Virus record (IMG/VR): IMGVR_UViG_3300009296_000199
Length of the DNA: 64,000 nucleotides
Strand: one strand, 5' to 3'
From: a virus
Positions 1 through 8,729 of this stretch are shown here, piece by piece. Under the pieces are notes generated by a model. The model was given only the letters and a program-made list of their open reading frames with translations, ran no database searches and was not told the origin of the DNA. Position numbers and translations under genes: made by a program. Position 1 is the stretch's first letter, and each line of letters opens with the position of its first letter.

Positions 1-471
1 GCCCCGGTGATTGAACGTGGGCGACATCCTCGACCTGCGACCGGGGGTGCTGTGCCACAGGAAGGTGCGGCGGTCGGGCGCGTCCTGCTCATGCGAGTCA
101 GAAAGGCCAGCATCGAGGACAGGCCCACGCAAACGCAGGTGCCAATGGCAGTCTACCGAGATCCATTCTTCCGGGGTGTCACAGAAATCATCAGCTCCCA
201 TGATGGGAGGAGACACCCCATTCTTGAAGCTCGGGCTCGCGGCGGAGTAAACACGTTGAAGCTGGAGATCCCGGAGATGCGTGACTTCGATGATCCCGTG
301 TTGCGGCTCGAAAAGACGGACTCAGGGATGTACTACCAGGCCTACGATGCCCAGTCTGCTCTTGGCCGGCCAATTCACGTCGCGCTCCAACGAGGTATGA
401 GAACCACCCCTCGGGCGACCTTGATTACCCGCCCTCCCATTGAACGGGCAACGTGGTGGCGATTTATATAA
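1..471 (+). CDS. hypothetical protein, 3' part (frame open from window start)
   Basis: Frame 1 is open from base 1 to TAA at 469-471; no recognisable motif in the visible part. Confidence 0.45.
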   Translation, partial: APVIERGRHPRPATGGAVPQEGAAVGRVLLMRVRKASIEDRPTQTQVPMAVYRDPFFRGVTEIISSHDGRRHPILEARARGGVNTLKLEIPEMRDFDDPVLRLEKTDSGMYYQAYDAQSALGRPIHVALQRGMRTTPRATLITRPPIERATWWRFI

Positions 472-573
472 TTCTCCGCGCTGTCCCCCAGTCTCTTTAA
501 TTTACACGGATGGCCAATGGATTGATCGTGCACCGGGAGGTGCGTTCTGGATGCTACTTCGGTCGTCCGTTGA

Positions 574-1401
574 TTACTTCACTTTCCGCTGTAATGATTT
601 TAATTCGGCAATGAGGCGTGGCCCTTGCATCATCCGTTCCGCAAATTGCTTTTGCCGTCGCATGTCGTCTCGCTTGCCCTTGACTTTGTGATCGAGCAAA
701 TTGCGTGCGCCACGGAACGAATGCAAGTCGTCCTTAAACGTTGTTGTAACCAGCGGATTTCGCCCATCATTATAGGTTTGCGGCGAGGCTAGAGTGTTAA
801 TCTGATCAGACCAGTCTTTTGCCTTGATCGATGTTTCGGGTACATTTATTAAAGTCTTTCGAATTCCAAGGCGCAGCAGCGCCTCAGTCTCCCGTTCAAC
901 GAGCTCACACATGTCGCGGAGTCCGTCCTTTCGGTCGACCTCGTTAAATTTCTTCACAGCCGCTTTTACTTCTGCCGCGCACGCCCCACATTTGAGAGTT
1001 GGATCTGGCGTCACCACTAGGGCTGGATTTCTTGCTCTTAGGGACTCGGTAACCTTTCTGTCGTCGTCCACGATCAGCAGTCCAACGCCATCTGTCCTGA
1101 GCGAGGCCAAGATGCCTGCCTGAGTAGGAGCTTGTATGTGTGTCGCAAGGTAGAGCTCGGCGTAGTGTCGTTGCGCTGCAATCCATATGGCTAAATCCTT
1201 GATCGACCTAAGATAATCAAGAGAACCCTGCGCCTCGACAAGGATACTCATGCCACCTTTGGAGGCAACAAGAGTTGTTCTGTACGGGGCATTAGCCCAT
1301 GCCGCCCGTTCGCTCCTAAGTGCCATTTGTTGCTTCGCAAAATGCCTGGCGACGGCGAGTGCAATTGGCCGAGCTTCTTCGGGCGTGAAATCAAACTTCA
1401 T
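574..1401 (-). CDS. putative restriction-endonuclease-fold + HEPN-like protein
   Basis: 275 aa. N-half has a PD-(D/E)XK-like strand pattern with degenerate catalytic residues (RTTL..VEAQ; YAELYLA..GVGLLIV). The helical C-half carries RNLLDH (R-x4-H HEPN motif). Starts 6 nt after the ParB-like stop. Confidence 0.55.
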   Translation of the reverse strand: MKFDFTPEEARPIALAVARHFAKQQMALRSERAAWANAPYRTTLVASKGGMSILVEAQGSLDYLRSIKDLAIWIAAQRHYAELYLATHIQAPTQAGILASLRTDGVGLLIVDDDRKVTESLRARNPALVVTPDPTLKCGACAAEVKAAVKKFNEVDRKDGLRDMCELVERETEALLRLGIRKTLINVPETSIKAKDWSDQINTLASPQTYNDGRNPLVTTTFKDDLHSFRGARNLLDHKVKGKRDDMRRQKQFAERMMQGPRLIAELKSLQRKVK

Positions 1402-1407
1402 GGCGAA

Positions 1408-2355
1408 TCAATTTAGAAGTCGACCAACCTCTTGTTTTAGCTCCTGCAGCGACTCGATAACCTCCGAGTTTAGGTGTTTCCTGGATTTAAAACGGCGAAG
1501 TTTGTCGCAAAGACCAGCTATCTTTGTCACAAGATTTCTCTGGTCATAGGCGGTCTCTACCGTATCTTCAAAAGCTTGCTTAATGCTGTATTTCTTGTCC
1601 TTAACGAGCCGGACTAGCACCGGGGTCGCGTGATTTTTGTCAACTCCTGCTAACTCGGCACGAGCAATCTTGCTGATATCGCGAAATCCGACGACGTTAT
1701 CTATAACCCCGTCCATGTATTTGTGGACCATCGTGTCGACAAAGGCCTGTTTAGTGAACTGCTTCATAGCTTCAGGTGCGTGTCGTTCAATAACGTGGAG
1801 CGCCTTATAAGTCTCTATGAACAGGTCGGGCTTGATCCGTTGTTCGCTTTTTGGTTTCTCGGCTTCTTTCAGTAGCATGGTCTGGTACTTCGAGGGAAGA
1901 TCCAGAAGGTCAAGCGCTCGTTGAACAGTTGGAAAACGAACACCCGTGATGGTCGCAAGGGATCGCGGGGTAACCTCTTTGCCCTCCTTAATCAGCATGT
2001 CGCGAATTTGCCCAAGTTTTAAAGCCATCGGCATAAGATCCCAATCAACGCGCACGTTGTGGATGTTAAACATCATCAGGAGATTTTCAAGACGGTTCGG
2101 CTTAGGCTGAACGATGCAGGGAATTGTCTTGAGGTTAAGTTTCTTGGAGCATCGCCATCGCCGCTCCCCATCCAGAATGACATAATGGGAATGATCCCCC
2201 AAGTAAACAGAAATCGGGACCTTGATTCCGACCTCGCGAATGGATTCGAGAAGTTCGAGCATTTCATCTTCGCGAAAAATTAGCCGAGGATTATCGGGGT
2301 TGTGGCGAATATCATCAGGAGAGATATCCTGAAGTTGGCTTGTGGTTTTGGTCAT
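1408..2355 (-). CDS. ParB/RepB/Spo0J (ParB/Srx) domain protein
   Basis: N-terminal NPDNPR..LLESIREVGIKVPISV..LDGERRWR (ParB arginine patch). GGAGG RBS before ATG 2355; ATGA overlap with the methylase stop. Confidence 0.85.
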   Translation of the reverse strand: MTKTTSQLQDISPDDIRHNPDNPRLIFREDEMLELLESIREVGIKVPISVYLGDHSHYVILDGERRWRCSKKLNLKTIPCIVQPKPNRLENLLMMFNIHNVRVDWDLMPMALKLGQIRDMLIKEGKEVTPRSLATITGVRFPTVQRALDLLDLPSKYQTMLLKEAEKPKSEQRIKPDLFIETYKALHVIERHAPEAMKQFTKQAFVDTMVHKYMDGVIDNVVGFRDISKIARAELAGVDKNHATPVLVRLVKDKKYSIKQAFEDTVETAYDQRNLVTKIAGLCDKLRRFKSRKHLNSEVIESLQELKQEVGRLLN

Positions 2356-3335
2356 TTTATGACCTCCGAATTGCATCCGAGGATTGGGTAACTCGACAAA
2401 AGAGCCTCGGTCGTAAGGCCTCGCCGACTCCCTTTGCCACCAATTAGACTTTGCCGCCTTATTCTAAAGTACCTAAAACCCTTGTAAAGCTTAACCACAG
2501 CCTGAAAGTTGGCATTTGAAACGAGGACATGTACCCCCGCGTTCATCAGCCGAATTGCTGTCTGCGCAAGACGTTCCTGGTCTGCCCATGAAAAAAGGCG
2601 CACATTGTACTTCAGGAAGCCATTGTTCTCATGACCAGTAACGTAAGGCGGGTCAAAATAAACAAGGTCGTTGGCCTTGGCTTCAGCTACTGCTTTTTGG
2701 AAATCGCAAAATTTTAGAGTGGCGGATTTTAGAACCTTAGAGGTCTCTAGAATTCTATCGCGGTCACATATCCTTGGATTCGTATACCGACCAAATGGAG
2801 TATTGAATTCGCCTTTGCGGTTGACTCGGTACAATCCATTCCAACAAGATCGATTCAGATATAGGAATTTGGCTGCGGCAGACCTATTGGACATCGGAGT
2901 ACGGGAACGAATTCGGTAATAGAAGTCTTCTTCGTATGGATAGGTGGACAATAAGCGAACTATGCCCCGCGCATCATCTCGGAGCGCACGATACATGGCG
3001 ATTAGCTTTTCATTTCGGTCCGATAGAACAGCTGAGTTTGGCTGGAGTGAGAAAAAGAAAGAACCTCCGCCAAGGAATGGTTCGAAATACCTTCCACTCC
3101 AATCTTTTGGGACCAATTGTTTTGCTGCGGTGGCAAGCCATTGCTTGCCACCAGCCCACTTCACGACAGGAGATCCGCTTGATTCGGCCAAGATGTTCGC
3201 GGCGAGAATCGGGCTGCGGCTAGAGCTTCGTCGTATGACAATGGCAGACGCGCCAATTTGCACGAGGAAAGATTTTGGCAATCTTACTGGGTCGGTCCGG
3301 TTCCTATCCCTGTTGGGGCTTGCGTGGTTACTCAT
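2352..3335 (-). CDS. D12-class (Dam-like) N6-adenine DNA methyltransferase
   Basis: KWAGGK, YFEPFLGGGS (motif I), LYLNRSCWNGLYRVN, YFDPPY (motif IV). Start codon uncertain. Confidence 0.92.
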   Translation of the reverse strand: MSNHASPNRDRNRTDPVRLPKSFLVQIGASAIVIRRSSSRSPILAANILAESSGSPVVKWAGGKQWLATAAKQLVPKDWSGRYFEPFLGGGSFFFSLQPNSAVLSDRNEKLIAMYRALRDDARGIVRLLSTYPYEEDFYYRIRSRTPMSNRSAAAKFLYLNRSCWNGLYRVNRKGEFNTPFGRYTNPRICDRDRILETSKVLKSATLKFCDFQKAVAEAKANDLVYFDPPYVTGHENNGFLKYNVRLFSWADQERLAQTAIRLMNAGVHVLVSNANFQAVVKLYKGFRYFRIRRQSLIGGKGSRRGLTTEALLSSYPILGCNSEVIK

Positions 3336-3400
3336 GGCCCTGTACTGGACTCAAACCTAGAAATCCTTGGTCAATAACGCATGTTGCCGCATGGGACATG

Positions 3401-3433
3401 AAAAAGGCCGGGCCACGTTCAGGGCTCCGGCCT
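3401..3433 (-). terminator. putative rho-independent terminator
   Basis: AGGCCGG(3405-3411)/CCGGCCT(3427-3433) stem followed by a T-run on the minus strand; sits at the left prophage junction. Confidence 0.4.
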
Positions 3434-3554
3434 CTCCCCCTGCTCACGACGAATTCTAATCGCGTTGCAGCTCCCCTGCCGAACCCTCTTGACCACTCAC
3501 GATTTTGATGTGAGGTAAAGCTGGCTGCCCGTCTCCAACGGTCTTAGAAACCGT

Positions 3555-4091
3555 TTGCTGCAAATAAACCCGCTTTTTGAGCCGGAAAACGAAATAAATG
3601 AGGTTTTGCTTTGGGATGGGTCGGATTTCGGACGGGTCAACGGGGCCAAGGGCCTGGGAAGAATCCTCTCTCCCCAAGAAGCCCAGGAAGTACGGAGCCG
3701 CCAACGACGCTACCTCCTGCCCAAGCCGCCCCTCATCCAGGTCATCCTGCGGCGGGCGCACGAGCTCCAGGCGCGCCTCACCGCCGACCACAGTCTCACC
3801 CGCGAATCCCTGGCCAAGGAGTCCGGGCTCAACCCCGGCCATCTGACCCGGCTGCTGCGCCTGGCCGACCTAGCCCCCGAGATCCAGCATTACATCCTGG
3901 CCCTGCCGCCCTCGATCCATCGGGGAGTGGTCACGGAGCGTCGCCTGCGGTCCATCGCCGCGATCTCGGAGCATGGGGCGCAATTGGAACGCTTCTATAG
4001 CCTGCTCACGCTCCCTGTCCGTGCCCAAAAGAAGTCCACCCCCGTTGCCTCACCCCCCTCCCATCGGCCCTTACTGCATCTTGGCGCTTGA
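3555..4091 (+). CDS. HTH-containing protein or fragment of the type found next to large serine recombinases
   Basis: RESLAKESGLNPGHLTRLLRLADLAPEIQHYIL HTH pattern. No good start or RBS; the frame is open back to 3519 (SWLPVSNGLRN). Confidence 0.5.
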   Translation: MLQINPLFEPENEINEVLLWDGSDFGRVNGAKGLGRILSPQEAQEVRSRQRRYLLPKPPLIQVILRRAHELQARLTADHSLTRESLAKESGLNPGHLTRLLRLADLAPEIQHYILALPPSIHRGVVTERRLRSIAAISEHGAQLERFYSLLTLPVRAQKKSTPVASPPSHRPLLHLGA

Positions 4092-6083: not shown

Positions 6084-6518
6084 GTGAGGATCGTACCCGT
6101 CTACGGCGTGACGCTGGTCCGCGACTCCTCGATCAAGGTGGCGGACAGGAGTGCCGACTCTCCGGTCGCCGTCGTTGAGATTCTGCGCGCGCACATCGGG
6201 AACGTGGACCGCGAGCATTTCGTGGCGCTGTTCGTAAACGCTCGGAACCAAATCATCGGCATCAACACCGTCTCGGTCGGCACCCTCTCGGCCAGCCTGG
6301 TCCATCCGAGGGAGATTTACAAGCCCGCGATCTTGATCAGCGCGGCGGCCGTGGTCATCGGTCACAATCATCCATCCGGCGACCAGCAGCCCTCGGCCGA
6401 GGACAAGGCGACGACCCGGCGGTTGGTCCAAGCCGGGCAACTGTTAGGCATCCCAATTCTCGATCACATCATCATCGGCGAGGGATACTTTTCATTCAGG
6501 GAGAGTGGACTCTTATGA
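6084..6518 (+). CDS. radC: RadC-like JAB/MPN domain protein (stand-alone)
   Basis: DREHF..LVHPREI..GHNHPSGD..PSAED..ILDHIIIG: complete JAB metal motif, no N-terminal HhH domain. Confidence 0.92.
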   Translation: MRIVPVYGVTLVRDSSIKVADRSADSPVAVVEILRAHIGNVDREHFVALFVNARNQIIGINTVSVGTLSASLVHPREIYKPAILISAAAVVIGHNHPSGDQQPSAEDKATTRRLVQAGQLLGIPILDHIIIGEGYFSFRESGLL

Positions 6519-7330: not shown

Positions 7331-7848
7331 TGGACATGGATACGACCGAGAAGCTCCGTGTAGCTAAGGCTCGAATGCGGGAGGCCTGCATTCACGCGGC
7401 GCTGGCGAATACGCCCGCGTCCGTGCGGGTTATCCGCATCCGGAGGACCCTGTCGGGCCGGGCCTATAGCCCAGAGGAGATCGCGGTGCCGAGGCCGATC
7501 ACCCGCCGGGCCATCCACGTATTCCTCCACGAGTGCGCCCACGTCGCCCTGGGGCACGTCGGAGCCAACAAAGCCGCCCAGTTCGGGCCGACGTTGCCCC
7601 ACGTGGGGCCAGGGCCAGTCCGGGCGGCCCCAAGGCCCAAGTACGCCCGCAAGCCGCGACACGTAGAGGAGTACGAGGCCGAGCGATGGGCCTTTGACCG
7701 TATGCGGGAGTCCGGCATCCCCGTGCCACGGAAGTCACTGCGGCGGGCCAAGAGCTATGTGGCCTATAAGATCCGACAGGCCCGGCGGCGCGGGGCCAAG
7801 ACCGTAGACCGTGAGGCCCTCCGGTGGGCCGGGGAGGCGACGCCATGA
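7327..7848 (+). CDS. HExxH zinc metallopeptidase-like protein (ImmA/IrrE-like)
   Basis: FLHECAHVALGH plus downstream EYEAERWA; ATGA overlaps on both sides. Confidence 0.7.
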   Translation: MMDMDTTEKLRVAKARMREACIHAALANTPASVRVIRIRRTLSGRAYSPEEIAVPRPITRRAIHVFLHECAHVALGHVGANKAAQFGPTLPHVGPGPVRAAPRPKYARKPRHVEEYEAERWAFDRMRESGIPVPRKSLRRAKSYVAYKIRQARRRGAKTVDREALRWAGEATP

Positions 7849-8729
7849 CCCAGGATGCCATGCTGGACGGATTCTTGCAGCACCTGCGGGTGGAGCGGGG
7901 GCTCGCCCCCAACACCTGCCTGTCCTACGGGTATCAGCTGGGGGCCTACGTCGCCTTCCTGCGGGCCAGAGGCCAGGAGCCGGCCACGGCAACACGGGAT
8001 GACGTGATAGCCTACCTCGAACGGCGCAAAGGCGACGGCCTCAGGTCGGCGTCGCTGTTCATAGCTGCGATGGCCGTGAGGCAGTTCCATCGTCACCTGG
8101 CTCAAACTGGTTGCGCCTCGGCCGACCCGACCGCCGGTATGCGCCTTCCCCGGTTCAAACAGCGAATCCCGAAACCGTTGGACGCGGAGGGTATGGACCG
8201 GCTGCTTCGCCCACCCGTGGGGGCCACGTTCTCGGTCCTGCGCGACCACGCCATGCTCGAAGCCATGTATGCCACGGGGATGCGGGTCTCGGAGCTCGTG
8301 GGCCTCCGGTTGGGACAGGTGGACCTGGGAGCGGGCTTGGCGCGTCCTATGGGCAAAGGCTCCAAGGAACGCATCGTCCCTTTTGGGGCCCGCGCGGTGA
8401 TCGCCCTACGTCGCTACCTCGCCGCCCGCGCGGCCCGCTTCCCGGCCGCTCCGGACGTCGTATTCCTCAACACCTGGGGCCGGGGGCTCACGCGAAGCGG
8501 CTTCGGCTGGCGGCTTGCGACCGCGGCGCGCCGAGCAGGGATATCGGGACGGCTGACGCCGCACCAGATCCGACATAGCTGTGCGACCCATATGCTGGAG
8601 GGCGGGGCCGATATCCGCATAGTCCAGGAGATGCTGGGGCACGCGAGTATCACGACCACCCAAATTTACACCCATGTCTCGGCCAACCTGATGCGGGAGA
8701 CCTGTCGGAAGGCGCACCCGCGATTCTAA
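7845..8729 (+). CDS. xerD: XerD-like tyrosine recombinase
   Basis: SAM-like N-terminus (LRVERGLAPNT), ATGMRVSEL, GKGSKERIVP, PHQIRHSCATH, LGHASITTTQIYTH: full R-K-H-R-H-Y set. Confidence 0.9.
   Translation: MTQDAMLDGFLQHLRVERGLAPNTCLSYGYQLGAYVAFLRARGQEPATATRDDVIAYLERRKGDGLRSASLFIAAMAVRQFHRHLAQTGCASADPTAGMRLPRFKQRIPKPLDAEGMDRLLRPPVGATFSVLRDHAMLEAMYATGMRVSELVGLRLGQVDLGAGLARPMGKGSKERIVPFGARAVIALRRYLAARAARFPAAPDVVFLNTWGRGLTRSGFGWRLATAARRAGISGRLTPHQIRHSCATHMLEGGADIRIVQEMLGHASITTTQIYTHVSANLMRETCRKAHPRF

Follow-up and report, generated by a model that had tools for sequence, protein, structure and literature searches.

The closest described relatives of the operon reported here join a DNA methylase, a ParB-fold protein and a HEPN domain. 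PD-lambda-5 of E. coli ECOR7 (Vassallo et al. 2022, PMC9519451) carries the label ‘ParB/HEPN, methyltransferase’ in Table S1 of that study: HHpred assigned its protein A to ParBc (96.4%) with weak DUF4145 and RiboL-PSP matches, and its protein B to MethyltransfD12 (99.9%). The system was validated in E. coli, where it protects against 9 of 10 phages, and its authors read it as a compacted restriction–modification (R-M) plus abortive infection system (PMC9519451). Anantharaman et al. 2013 (PMC3710099) listed HEPN genes in operons with ParB and a DNA methylase (MAE_28990 / RiboL-PSP-HEPN). Here we describe a three-gene operon, the trio, located on the minus strand at positions 574–3335 of the IMG/VR virus record IMGVR_UViG_3300009296_000199; the whole stretch analyzed, 64 000 nt in length, is called the window. 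The trio encodes a D12-class N6-adenine DNA methyltransferase (MTase), a partition-type ParB protein and a 275-aa protein that combines a PD-(D/E)xK-like domain with a HEPN-like domain, subsequently named the effector. By comparison of their components, this cassette is most likely a split variant of the PD-lambda-5 design, with ParB and HEPN parts that bear no detectable sequence similarity to those of that system. The design class, methylase plus ParB fold plus HEPN, is already known and experimentally validated in PD-lambda-5. Since PD-lambda-5 and the HEPN operons of 2013 share this design, the novelty of the trio is smaller than an earlier note on this DNA, made from its letters alone, had assumed. 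ParB and the effector match no PADLOC model. New are the split three-gene architecture, a partition-type ParB with substituted hydrolysis residues, a nuclease-fold adaptor domain that is predicted to be dead and a HEPN family outside all libraries searched.

Architecture of the operon and its three proteins

The three genes are intact and translationally coupled. The TGA stop of the MTase gene and the ATG of ParB share the sequence ATGA, with GGAGG 8 nt upstream, and the ParB stop is followed by a 6-nt spacer and the ATG of the 275-aa gene. The DNA thus reads as the earlier note had described it: three minus-strand genes, the first two ATGA-coupled and the third 6 nt further on. The genes, together with domains assigned from fold matches and motifs located by script, are as follows:

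2352–3335, minus strand: open reading frame (ORF) of the D12-class (Dam/DpnM-like) N6-adenine DNA methyltransferase, 327 aa
3060–3077, minus strand: FLGGGS, S-adenosylmethionine motif I of the MTase
2643–2654, minus strand: DPPY motif of the MTase
2352–2367, minus strand: GGAGG Shine–Dalgarno sequence and ATGA stop/start overlap coupling MTase and ParB, from reading the DNA
1408–2376, minus strand: ParB ORF, 322 aa, or 315 aa (1408–2355) from a second ATG at 2355
Within ParB, by residue: ParB/Srx NTPase fold, ∼1–95; helix-turn-helix (HTH) DNA-binding region, ∼105–235; C-terminal helical hairpin, 266–315
2152–2169, minus strand: GERRWR, the Box II arginine patch in the nucleotide pocket of ParB
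574–1401, minus strand: effector gene, ORF of 275 aa
1027–1401, minus strand: PD-(D/E)xK-fold N-terminal domain of the effector (residues 1–125), from VIA fold matches, predicted to be catalytically dead
1228–1239, minus strand: VEAQ, E-x-Q remnant of the (D/E)xK motif
574–993, minus strand: HEPN-fold C-terminal domain of the effector (residues 137–275) plus stop codon, from VIA fold matches
688–705, minus strand: RNLLDH, R-x4-H motif (R233...H238), predicted RNase active site
3401–3432, minus strand: terminator-like hairpin GGCCGG...CCGGCC followed by TTTTT, a sequence pattern only

Within the effector the strongest constraint falls on the HEPN R-x4-H motif. No family was found for this protein in Pfam, PADLOC, NCBIfam, PHROGs or the PDB sequences; a profile of its family gave only spurious matches to designed helical proteins when run against the PDB. 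In a collection of 5.8 billion clusters it has 389 homologues, nearly all of them 273–280 aa long and all unnamed, and when 1.84 billion representatives were searched exhaustively with a profile the family came to only 223 clusters at 50% identity. No fused form above 500 aa was found, which is weak evidence. The AF2 model of the effector is confident (predicted local distance difference test (pLDDT) 92.4, predicted template modelling score 0.77). Its C-terminal domain (residues 137–275) gave its best VIA match to 1wwp (Z 10.7, root-mean-square deviation 2.9, 114 residues aligned), followed by an AMPylated HEPN toxin (8xdj, Z 9.9), the HEPN protein AF_0298 (2hsb, Z 9.4), SO_3166 and HEPN/MNT (Z 9.0 each; 5yep and 7ae2); further VIA matches are MtlR, sacsin, Csm6, RnlA, LsoA and HepS, and the Atlas structure rows for this domain are HepT-like and DUF4145. 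HEPN RNases are generally dimeric and have a composite active site. The HEPN domain that the earlier note had suggested from an R-x4-H motif is thus also found by structure prediction.

Residues 4–125 of the effector model adopt the alpha-beta-beta-beta-alpha-beta core fold of PD-(D/E)xK nucleases, with VIA matches to AF2093 (Z 10.1), XisH (Z 9.9), AF1548 (Z 9.4) and NucS (Z 9.1) as well as to Can2/Card1, SdaI, PaqCI and BstEII; the Foldseek rows from AFDB name Mrr, restriction endonuclease (REase) and VRR-NUC proteins. An alignment of 25 family members, down to 16% identity, shows E/D56 as the lone acidic residue kept in this fold. The strand-2 aspartate and the lysine of (D/E)xK are not conserved in the family, strand 2 reading R/T/P; position 58 varies between Q, R, M, E, T, K, A, N, S and I, and E9 in helix 1 is unconserved. 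We predict from this pattern that the nuclease fold is catalytically dead. The only invariant residues in the same alignment are G107, E169, R233 and H238. Because selection sits on these four residues and not on nuclease catalytic residues, the constraint pattern marks the HEPN site as the probable functional centre of the effector and argues that the nuclease fold is not a nuclease. The view of the earlier note, a degenerate PD-(D/E)xK half joined to an R-x4-H motif in an operon devoid of a conventional REase, is borne out in that the sole nuclease-fold domain of the trio lacks the catalytic residues.

The ParB protein matches PF02195 ParB_N (1.5e-19; 70.2 bits, cut-off 26.3) and TIGR00180 parB_part (1.7e-20; 73.6 bits, cut-off 58.45), the latter over residues 7–167 with the HTH region included. 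Its AF2 model (pLDDT 85.5) gave VIA matches to sulfiredoxin (Z 11.8), CTP-bound KorB (Z 11.6) and Spo0J (Z 9.3), and also to the DNA-binding domain of KorB (Z 7.0). These matches and the GERRWR patch agree with the ParB/Srx assignment made earlier. We compared 11 ParB proteins from trio loci with Caulobacter ParB: E64, R65 and R66 are invariant and align to E102, R103 and R104 of the Caulobacter protein. Mutant classes of Caulobacter ParB define R60, S74, G79, R103, R104, N136 and R139 as needed for CTP binding, and the class II residues Q58 and E135 as needed for hydrolysis and correct clamp timing (PMC8367383). Six of the seven CTP-binding positions are invariant in the trio proteins (R24, S38, G43, R65, R66 and R102), and the seventh, N136, corresponds to N100 in the window ParB and varies across the family. 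Both hydrolysis/clamp residues are exchanged, Q58 for N22 and E135 for H99, and both replacements are invariant. We infer that this ParB acts as a switch that binds nucleotide but whose hydrolysis step is altered. No ParA gene adjoins any trio copy inspected, and the N-terminal ParA-binding peptide is absent from the window ParB. Its C-terminal helical element could serve dimerisation.

A complex of ParB and effector was predicted with a model score of 0.69 (three runs, 0.68–0.72), compared to 0.00 for the best of three controls. As a rough guide only, since our own alignments were used, 58 of 80 complexes with solved structures reach the mark of 0.69, as do 2 of 110 mismatched pairs. The runs share at least 92% of their contacts, and the partner pLDDT is at least 85. 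In the predicted interface residues 26–40 and 68–74 of ParB, helices beside GERRW, face residues 4–10, 31–41 and 58–69 of the effector; the latter cover N-domain residues that the effector family conserves, namely the PYR(P/T)T patch, Q58 and Y63. According to this model the dead PD-(D/E)xK domain is predicted to be a docking surface for ParB, an adaptor that ties the RNase to the ParB nucleotide pocket. Such a role would explain the retention of a catalytically dead fold.

The MTase belongs to the families PF02086 MethyltransfD12 (Pfam, 6e-49) and TIGR00571 dam (1e-67). Its closest solved relative is DpnM (2dpm, 3.8e-58), which methylates GATC in the DpnII system. With the catalytic motifs DPPY and FxGxG (here FLGGGS) in place the enzyme is intact, as had been stated before for a Dam-class MTase. 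Six of the seven residues by which EcoDam contacts GATC, as named in PMC4417163, are identical in the window MTase (K9, N120, L122, R124, P134 and Y138) and Y119 is replaced by W, which makes GATC the likely target. The likeness to DpnM and to most homologues starts only at residue 55–56, and even the closest relative shows little conservation of the first 55 residues; this makes a start at TTG 3191 (279 aa) as plausible as one at ATG 3335.

Upstream of the operon, 66 nt from ATG 3335, the GC-rich hairpin at 3401–3432 looks like a terminator and would shield the trio from upstream transcription. Scans for sigma-70-like promoters and terminators gave background level only. The GC content of the operon is 49%, compared to 59% for the window, and a telling depletion of GATC or other 4-mer palindromes is absent from both.

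Comparison with described systems

Like the trio, PD-lambda-5 holds a D12-class adenine methylase, ParB_N (PF02195) and a HEPN-like domain in one operon; the first helix of its HEPN-like domain is DUF4145-like. The window MTase matches the PADLOC model PD-Lambda-5_B (PDLC04018) at 2.2e-12. In contrast, PD-lambda-5 consists of two genes with ParB and HEPN fused (∼500 aa), whereas the trio has separate proteins, its ParB bears an HTH and a C-terminal hairpin of its own, its effector carries the additional dead PD-(D/E)xK domain, and the gene order is reversed, with the methylase first. Neither ParB nor the 275-aa protein has a PADLOC match at E ≤ 1, PD-Lambda-5_A included, and four carrier genomes searched in six frames with PD-Lambda-5_A (PDLC04016) had no match at their trio loci. 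One Phycisphaerales metagenome-assembled genome (MAG) carries both the trio and a PD-lambda-5-like pair, at separate loci: in the pair (L042:1236–3508) a 466-aa protein that matches PD-Lambda-5_A at both ends (E ∼6e-6) overlaps a 291-aa D12 methylase. A single-sequence hhalign comparison of this PD-lambda-5A-like protein with the ParB and effector profiles, which has low power, gave nothing.

The MAE_28990/RiboL-PSP-HEPN operons likewise combine a ParB-superfamily protein, a HEPN protein and a DNA methylase, and the validated DUF262+HEPN system PD-T4-2 shares the logic of a ParB-superfamily protein with HEPN. However, the ParB-superfamily partners in MAE_28990 operons belong to the DUF262/GmrSD_N clade and are not partition-type ParB proteins with an HTH, the methylase seen is a C5 cytosine enzyme, and the HEPN protein (∼215–240 aa) lacks the REase-fold domain present in the window effector. 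True PF18737 members that we fetched lie directly after a GmrSD_N/DUF262 gene, in one case followed by the C5 methylase. HEPN_MAE_28990 (PF18737) was tried as a family for the effector and dropped: neither the window protein nor 24 relatives matched it at E ≤ 10, and it had no match at the trio loci of five carrier genomes.

The trio also resembles DpnII-type (GATC) R-M systems in its DpnM-closest methylase with conserved GATC contacts, in being a small mobile unit and in its coupled genes; unlike them it has ParB and a HEPN protein in the restriction slot. No DpnII/MboI-type or other competent endonuclease is present in the trio, and Pfam, PADLOC and NCBIfam gave no REase match. With the ParB-CTPase clamps (chromosomal ParB/Spo0J, Noc and KorB) the window ParB shares the N-terminal fold, the Box I/II/III arginines and the HTH; it differs in that it lacks ParA, has N and H as the equivalents of Q58 and E135 and has a predicted HEPN-effector partner. 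A 2025 survey of orphan ParB-CTPase proteins makes no mention of HEPN partners.

Conservation, spread and genomic setting

Co-occurrence of the three genes was assessed at 14 intact loci with enough upstream sequence. ParB lies directly before the effector in all 14 and a D12 methylase directly before ParB in 13, with gaps or overlaps of at most 20 nt throughout, while effector identity across these loci falls to ∼20%. The hosts are Acidobacteriota (Pyrinomonadaceae and others), Verrucomicrobiota, Elusimicrobia, Planctomycetota (Phycisphaerales) and unassigned metagenome contigs; the loci thus come from at least four phyla, and their flanks are unrelated. Some copies lie between housekeeping genes (murD-ftsW region, yebC, der), others adjoin a BglII R-M pair, Mrr plus MTaX1, or TniQ, HATPase and DUF87 genes. 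The trio is a strongly conserved and mobile cassette, and the conserved gene order across phyla supports the coupled operon proposed in the earlier note. Two peptide patterns found the close effector family in only 10 of ∼185 000 species genomes, and it has no match in IMG/VR viral contigs. A small HTH_3 gene resembling R-M controller (C) genes directly precedes the methylase in two unrelated trios, one at L019:2938–3168 and the other on a Logan contig; the window copy has no HTH_3 gene.

Three trio copies are decayed. In a Terriglobales MAG (L006:5084–6828) the first 206 residues of the methylase are gone and ParB lacks residues 69–200 and carries a frameshift, while the effector gene is intact. 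An effector that stays intact despite the loss of the ParB core fits ParB being an activator rather than an antidote, as far as a single case can tell.

Positions 1–3527 of the window are 100% identical to groundwater metagenome contigs of the same sample (L037 and L039), and the sequences diverge abruptly at 3528: both read GCTGGCTG up to this point, after which the window continues with CCCGTC and the contig with GGCCAC. Position 3527/3528 is probably a strain-level insertion junction, the left end of a prophage; the match up to 3527 and the divergence from 3528 show that the trio is not part of the prophage occupying the remainder of the window. Neither a direct repeat of the junction nor the alternative right flank was found elsewhere in the window. 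Beyond the left end of the window the contig (L037:10931–20828) carries a PLD-like gene, an N6_N4 methylase, an Eco57I-type enzyme, an HTH_17/MerR gene, a DDE transposase, Mrr and a large serine recombinase, and its alternative right flank encodes a NACHT NTPase and a second N6_N4 methylase. Judged by these neighbouring genes the window copy sits in a defence island, in line with the candidate defence role assigned to it at the outset, and the ∼13-kb block may be a recombinase-borne integrative island.

On the prophage side of the junction a 178-aa ORF (3555–4091, plus strand) has a weak HTH_ParB match (E 3e-4) below cut-off and is unrelated to the ParB gene of the trio. Further to the right, in a segment of 60–69% GC, lie a RadC-like JAB gene (6084–6518, 9e-43) and a XerD-type tyrosine integrase (7824–8729, 7e-44).

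Proposed mechanism and alternative explanations

On balance we lean, by a little, towards reading the trio as a self-contained, mobile, R-M-like immune (and probably also addictive) cassette that realizes the PD-lambda-5 design in three genes. In this cassette the DpnM-like methylase would mark host DNA, probably at GATC, and ParB, a dimer that binds DNA by its HTH and whose N-domain is a nucleotide switch, would sense DNA without the mark. The dead REase-fold domain of the effector would bind the ParB N-domain, as the complex model suggests. Engagement of the ParB N-domains, driven by nucleotide and DNA, would then bring the HEPN domains into an active RNase dimer or release them into it, and this dimer would cut RNA and halt the infected cell or the phage; a DNA-cleaving enzyme would be unnecessary. 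As the earlier note had suggested, ParB would scan and the HEPN domain would act by abortive infection. ParB N-domains dimerise upon nucleotide and DNA binding (PMC8367383), and coupling this dimerisation to the dimer requirement of HEPN RNases would give a simple activation model. A more specific proposal, that the ParB switch has been recruited as a sensor of non-self DNA whose HTH reads missing GATC methylation and whose N-domains pair two HEPN domains via the dead adaptor, with no DNA cleavage, is tentative and, taken as a whole, somewhat doubtful.

Several points weigh against this reading of the trio as an immune cassette. RNase activity and phage protection are, for every member, predicted properties. 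Helical bundles such as the four-helix HEPN can reach Z ∼10 through their common arrangement, hhalign of the effector family against true MAE_28990 members gave a probability of 0.3%, and no sequence profile from Pfam or PADLOC ties the C-terminal domain to any HEPN family; the HEPN call therefore rests on fold and motif. The alignments behind the complex model are unpaired and shallow. The MTase target is drawn from residue conservation alone, and GATC, which is not depleted in the window (observed/expected 0.87–0.90), provides no confirmation of it; the sensitivity of ParB to methylation is pure inference. The one exception to the gene order (L045:429–3240) is a peripheral member on a 3.3-kb contig that lacks a methylase directly upstream of ParB and effector and has a YLATT three-transmembrane gene there instead; this locus may do without the modification gene or have it elsewhere.

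The distribution of labour between the two non-methylase proteins could also be different. ParB itself might be the restriction nuclease that attacks unmethylated DNA, leaving the HEPN protein as a back-up suicide module or regulator: DNA nicking is known for some ParB/Srx proteins (Osa and RK2 ParB, cited in PMC12839542), Aravind's group labels the operon partner ‘ParB nuclease’ (PMC3710099), and invariant H99 and N22 in places where CTPase ParBs have E and Q suggest altered chemistry. We nevertheless consider this unlikely, as the protein is a partition-type ParB with an HTH and an above-cut-off TIGR00180 match, retains six of seven CTP-binding positions as invariant residues and has CTP-bound KorB and Spo0J as nearest folds, nucleases being absent from its top matches; moreover, the strongest constraint on its partner lies on the HEPN R-x4-H motif, which argues that the 275-aa protein is the effector. 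That same protein could instead be an active E-x-Q endonuclease (BglII-like), in which case the trio would be a type II R-M system of the ordinary sort and ParB its controller or DNA-loading factor. Its PD-(D/E)xK fold, which matches nucleases such as SdaI, PaqCI and BstEII with Z values of up to 10, the family-wide E56 (E or D) and the C-protein-like HTH_3 gene before the trio in two loci are in keeping with such an enzyme. However, strand 2 offers no conserved acidic residue, position 58 is free and E9 is unconserved, while those N-domain residues that are conserved fall in the predicted interface with ParB and the invariant residues lie in the HEPN half, and we regard an active endonuclease as very unlikely.

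The trio might also be a selfish addiction or epigenetic module without anti-phage function, in which the chromosome is protected from ParB by methylation and HEPN toxicity follows when the cassette is lost (post-segregational killing), or in which ParB and methylase regulate host genes. The bare three-gene unit is inserted between housekeeping genes and has a foreign GC content, and decayed copies lose methylase and ParB together, a behaviour typical of selfish R-M systems. Yet an R-M system can be both addictive and defensive, several copies of the trio are found in defence islands and PD-lambda-5, the nearest design, protects against phages; a module devoid of any anti-phage role thus appears quite unlikely.

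ParB-fold proteins recur beside HEPN nucleases and DNA-modifying enzymes in many candidate defence systems and in some validated ones (PD-lambda-5, PD-T4-2). PADLOC recognizes neither ParB nor the effector of the trio, and Pfam does not recognize the effector either, so that defence annotation at present misses such cassettes. The trio is unusually easy to dissect: the sensor is not fused to the effector, ParB belongs to the well-understood CTPase-clamp proteins whose residues for binding and hydrolysis have been mapped, the methylase target is probably known (GATC), and a specific conserved interface that can be mutated has been predicted. If the ParB-sensor reading is true, the trio would be the first case in which the CTPase-clamp cycle of ParB is linked mechanistically to the activation of an immune effector.

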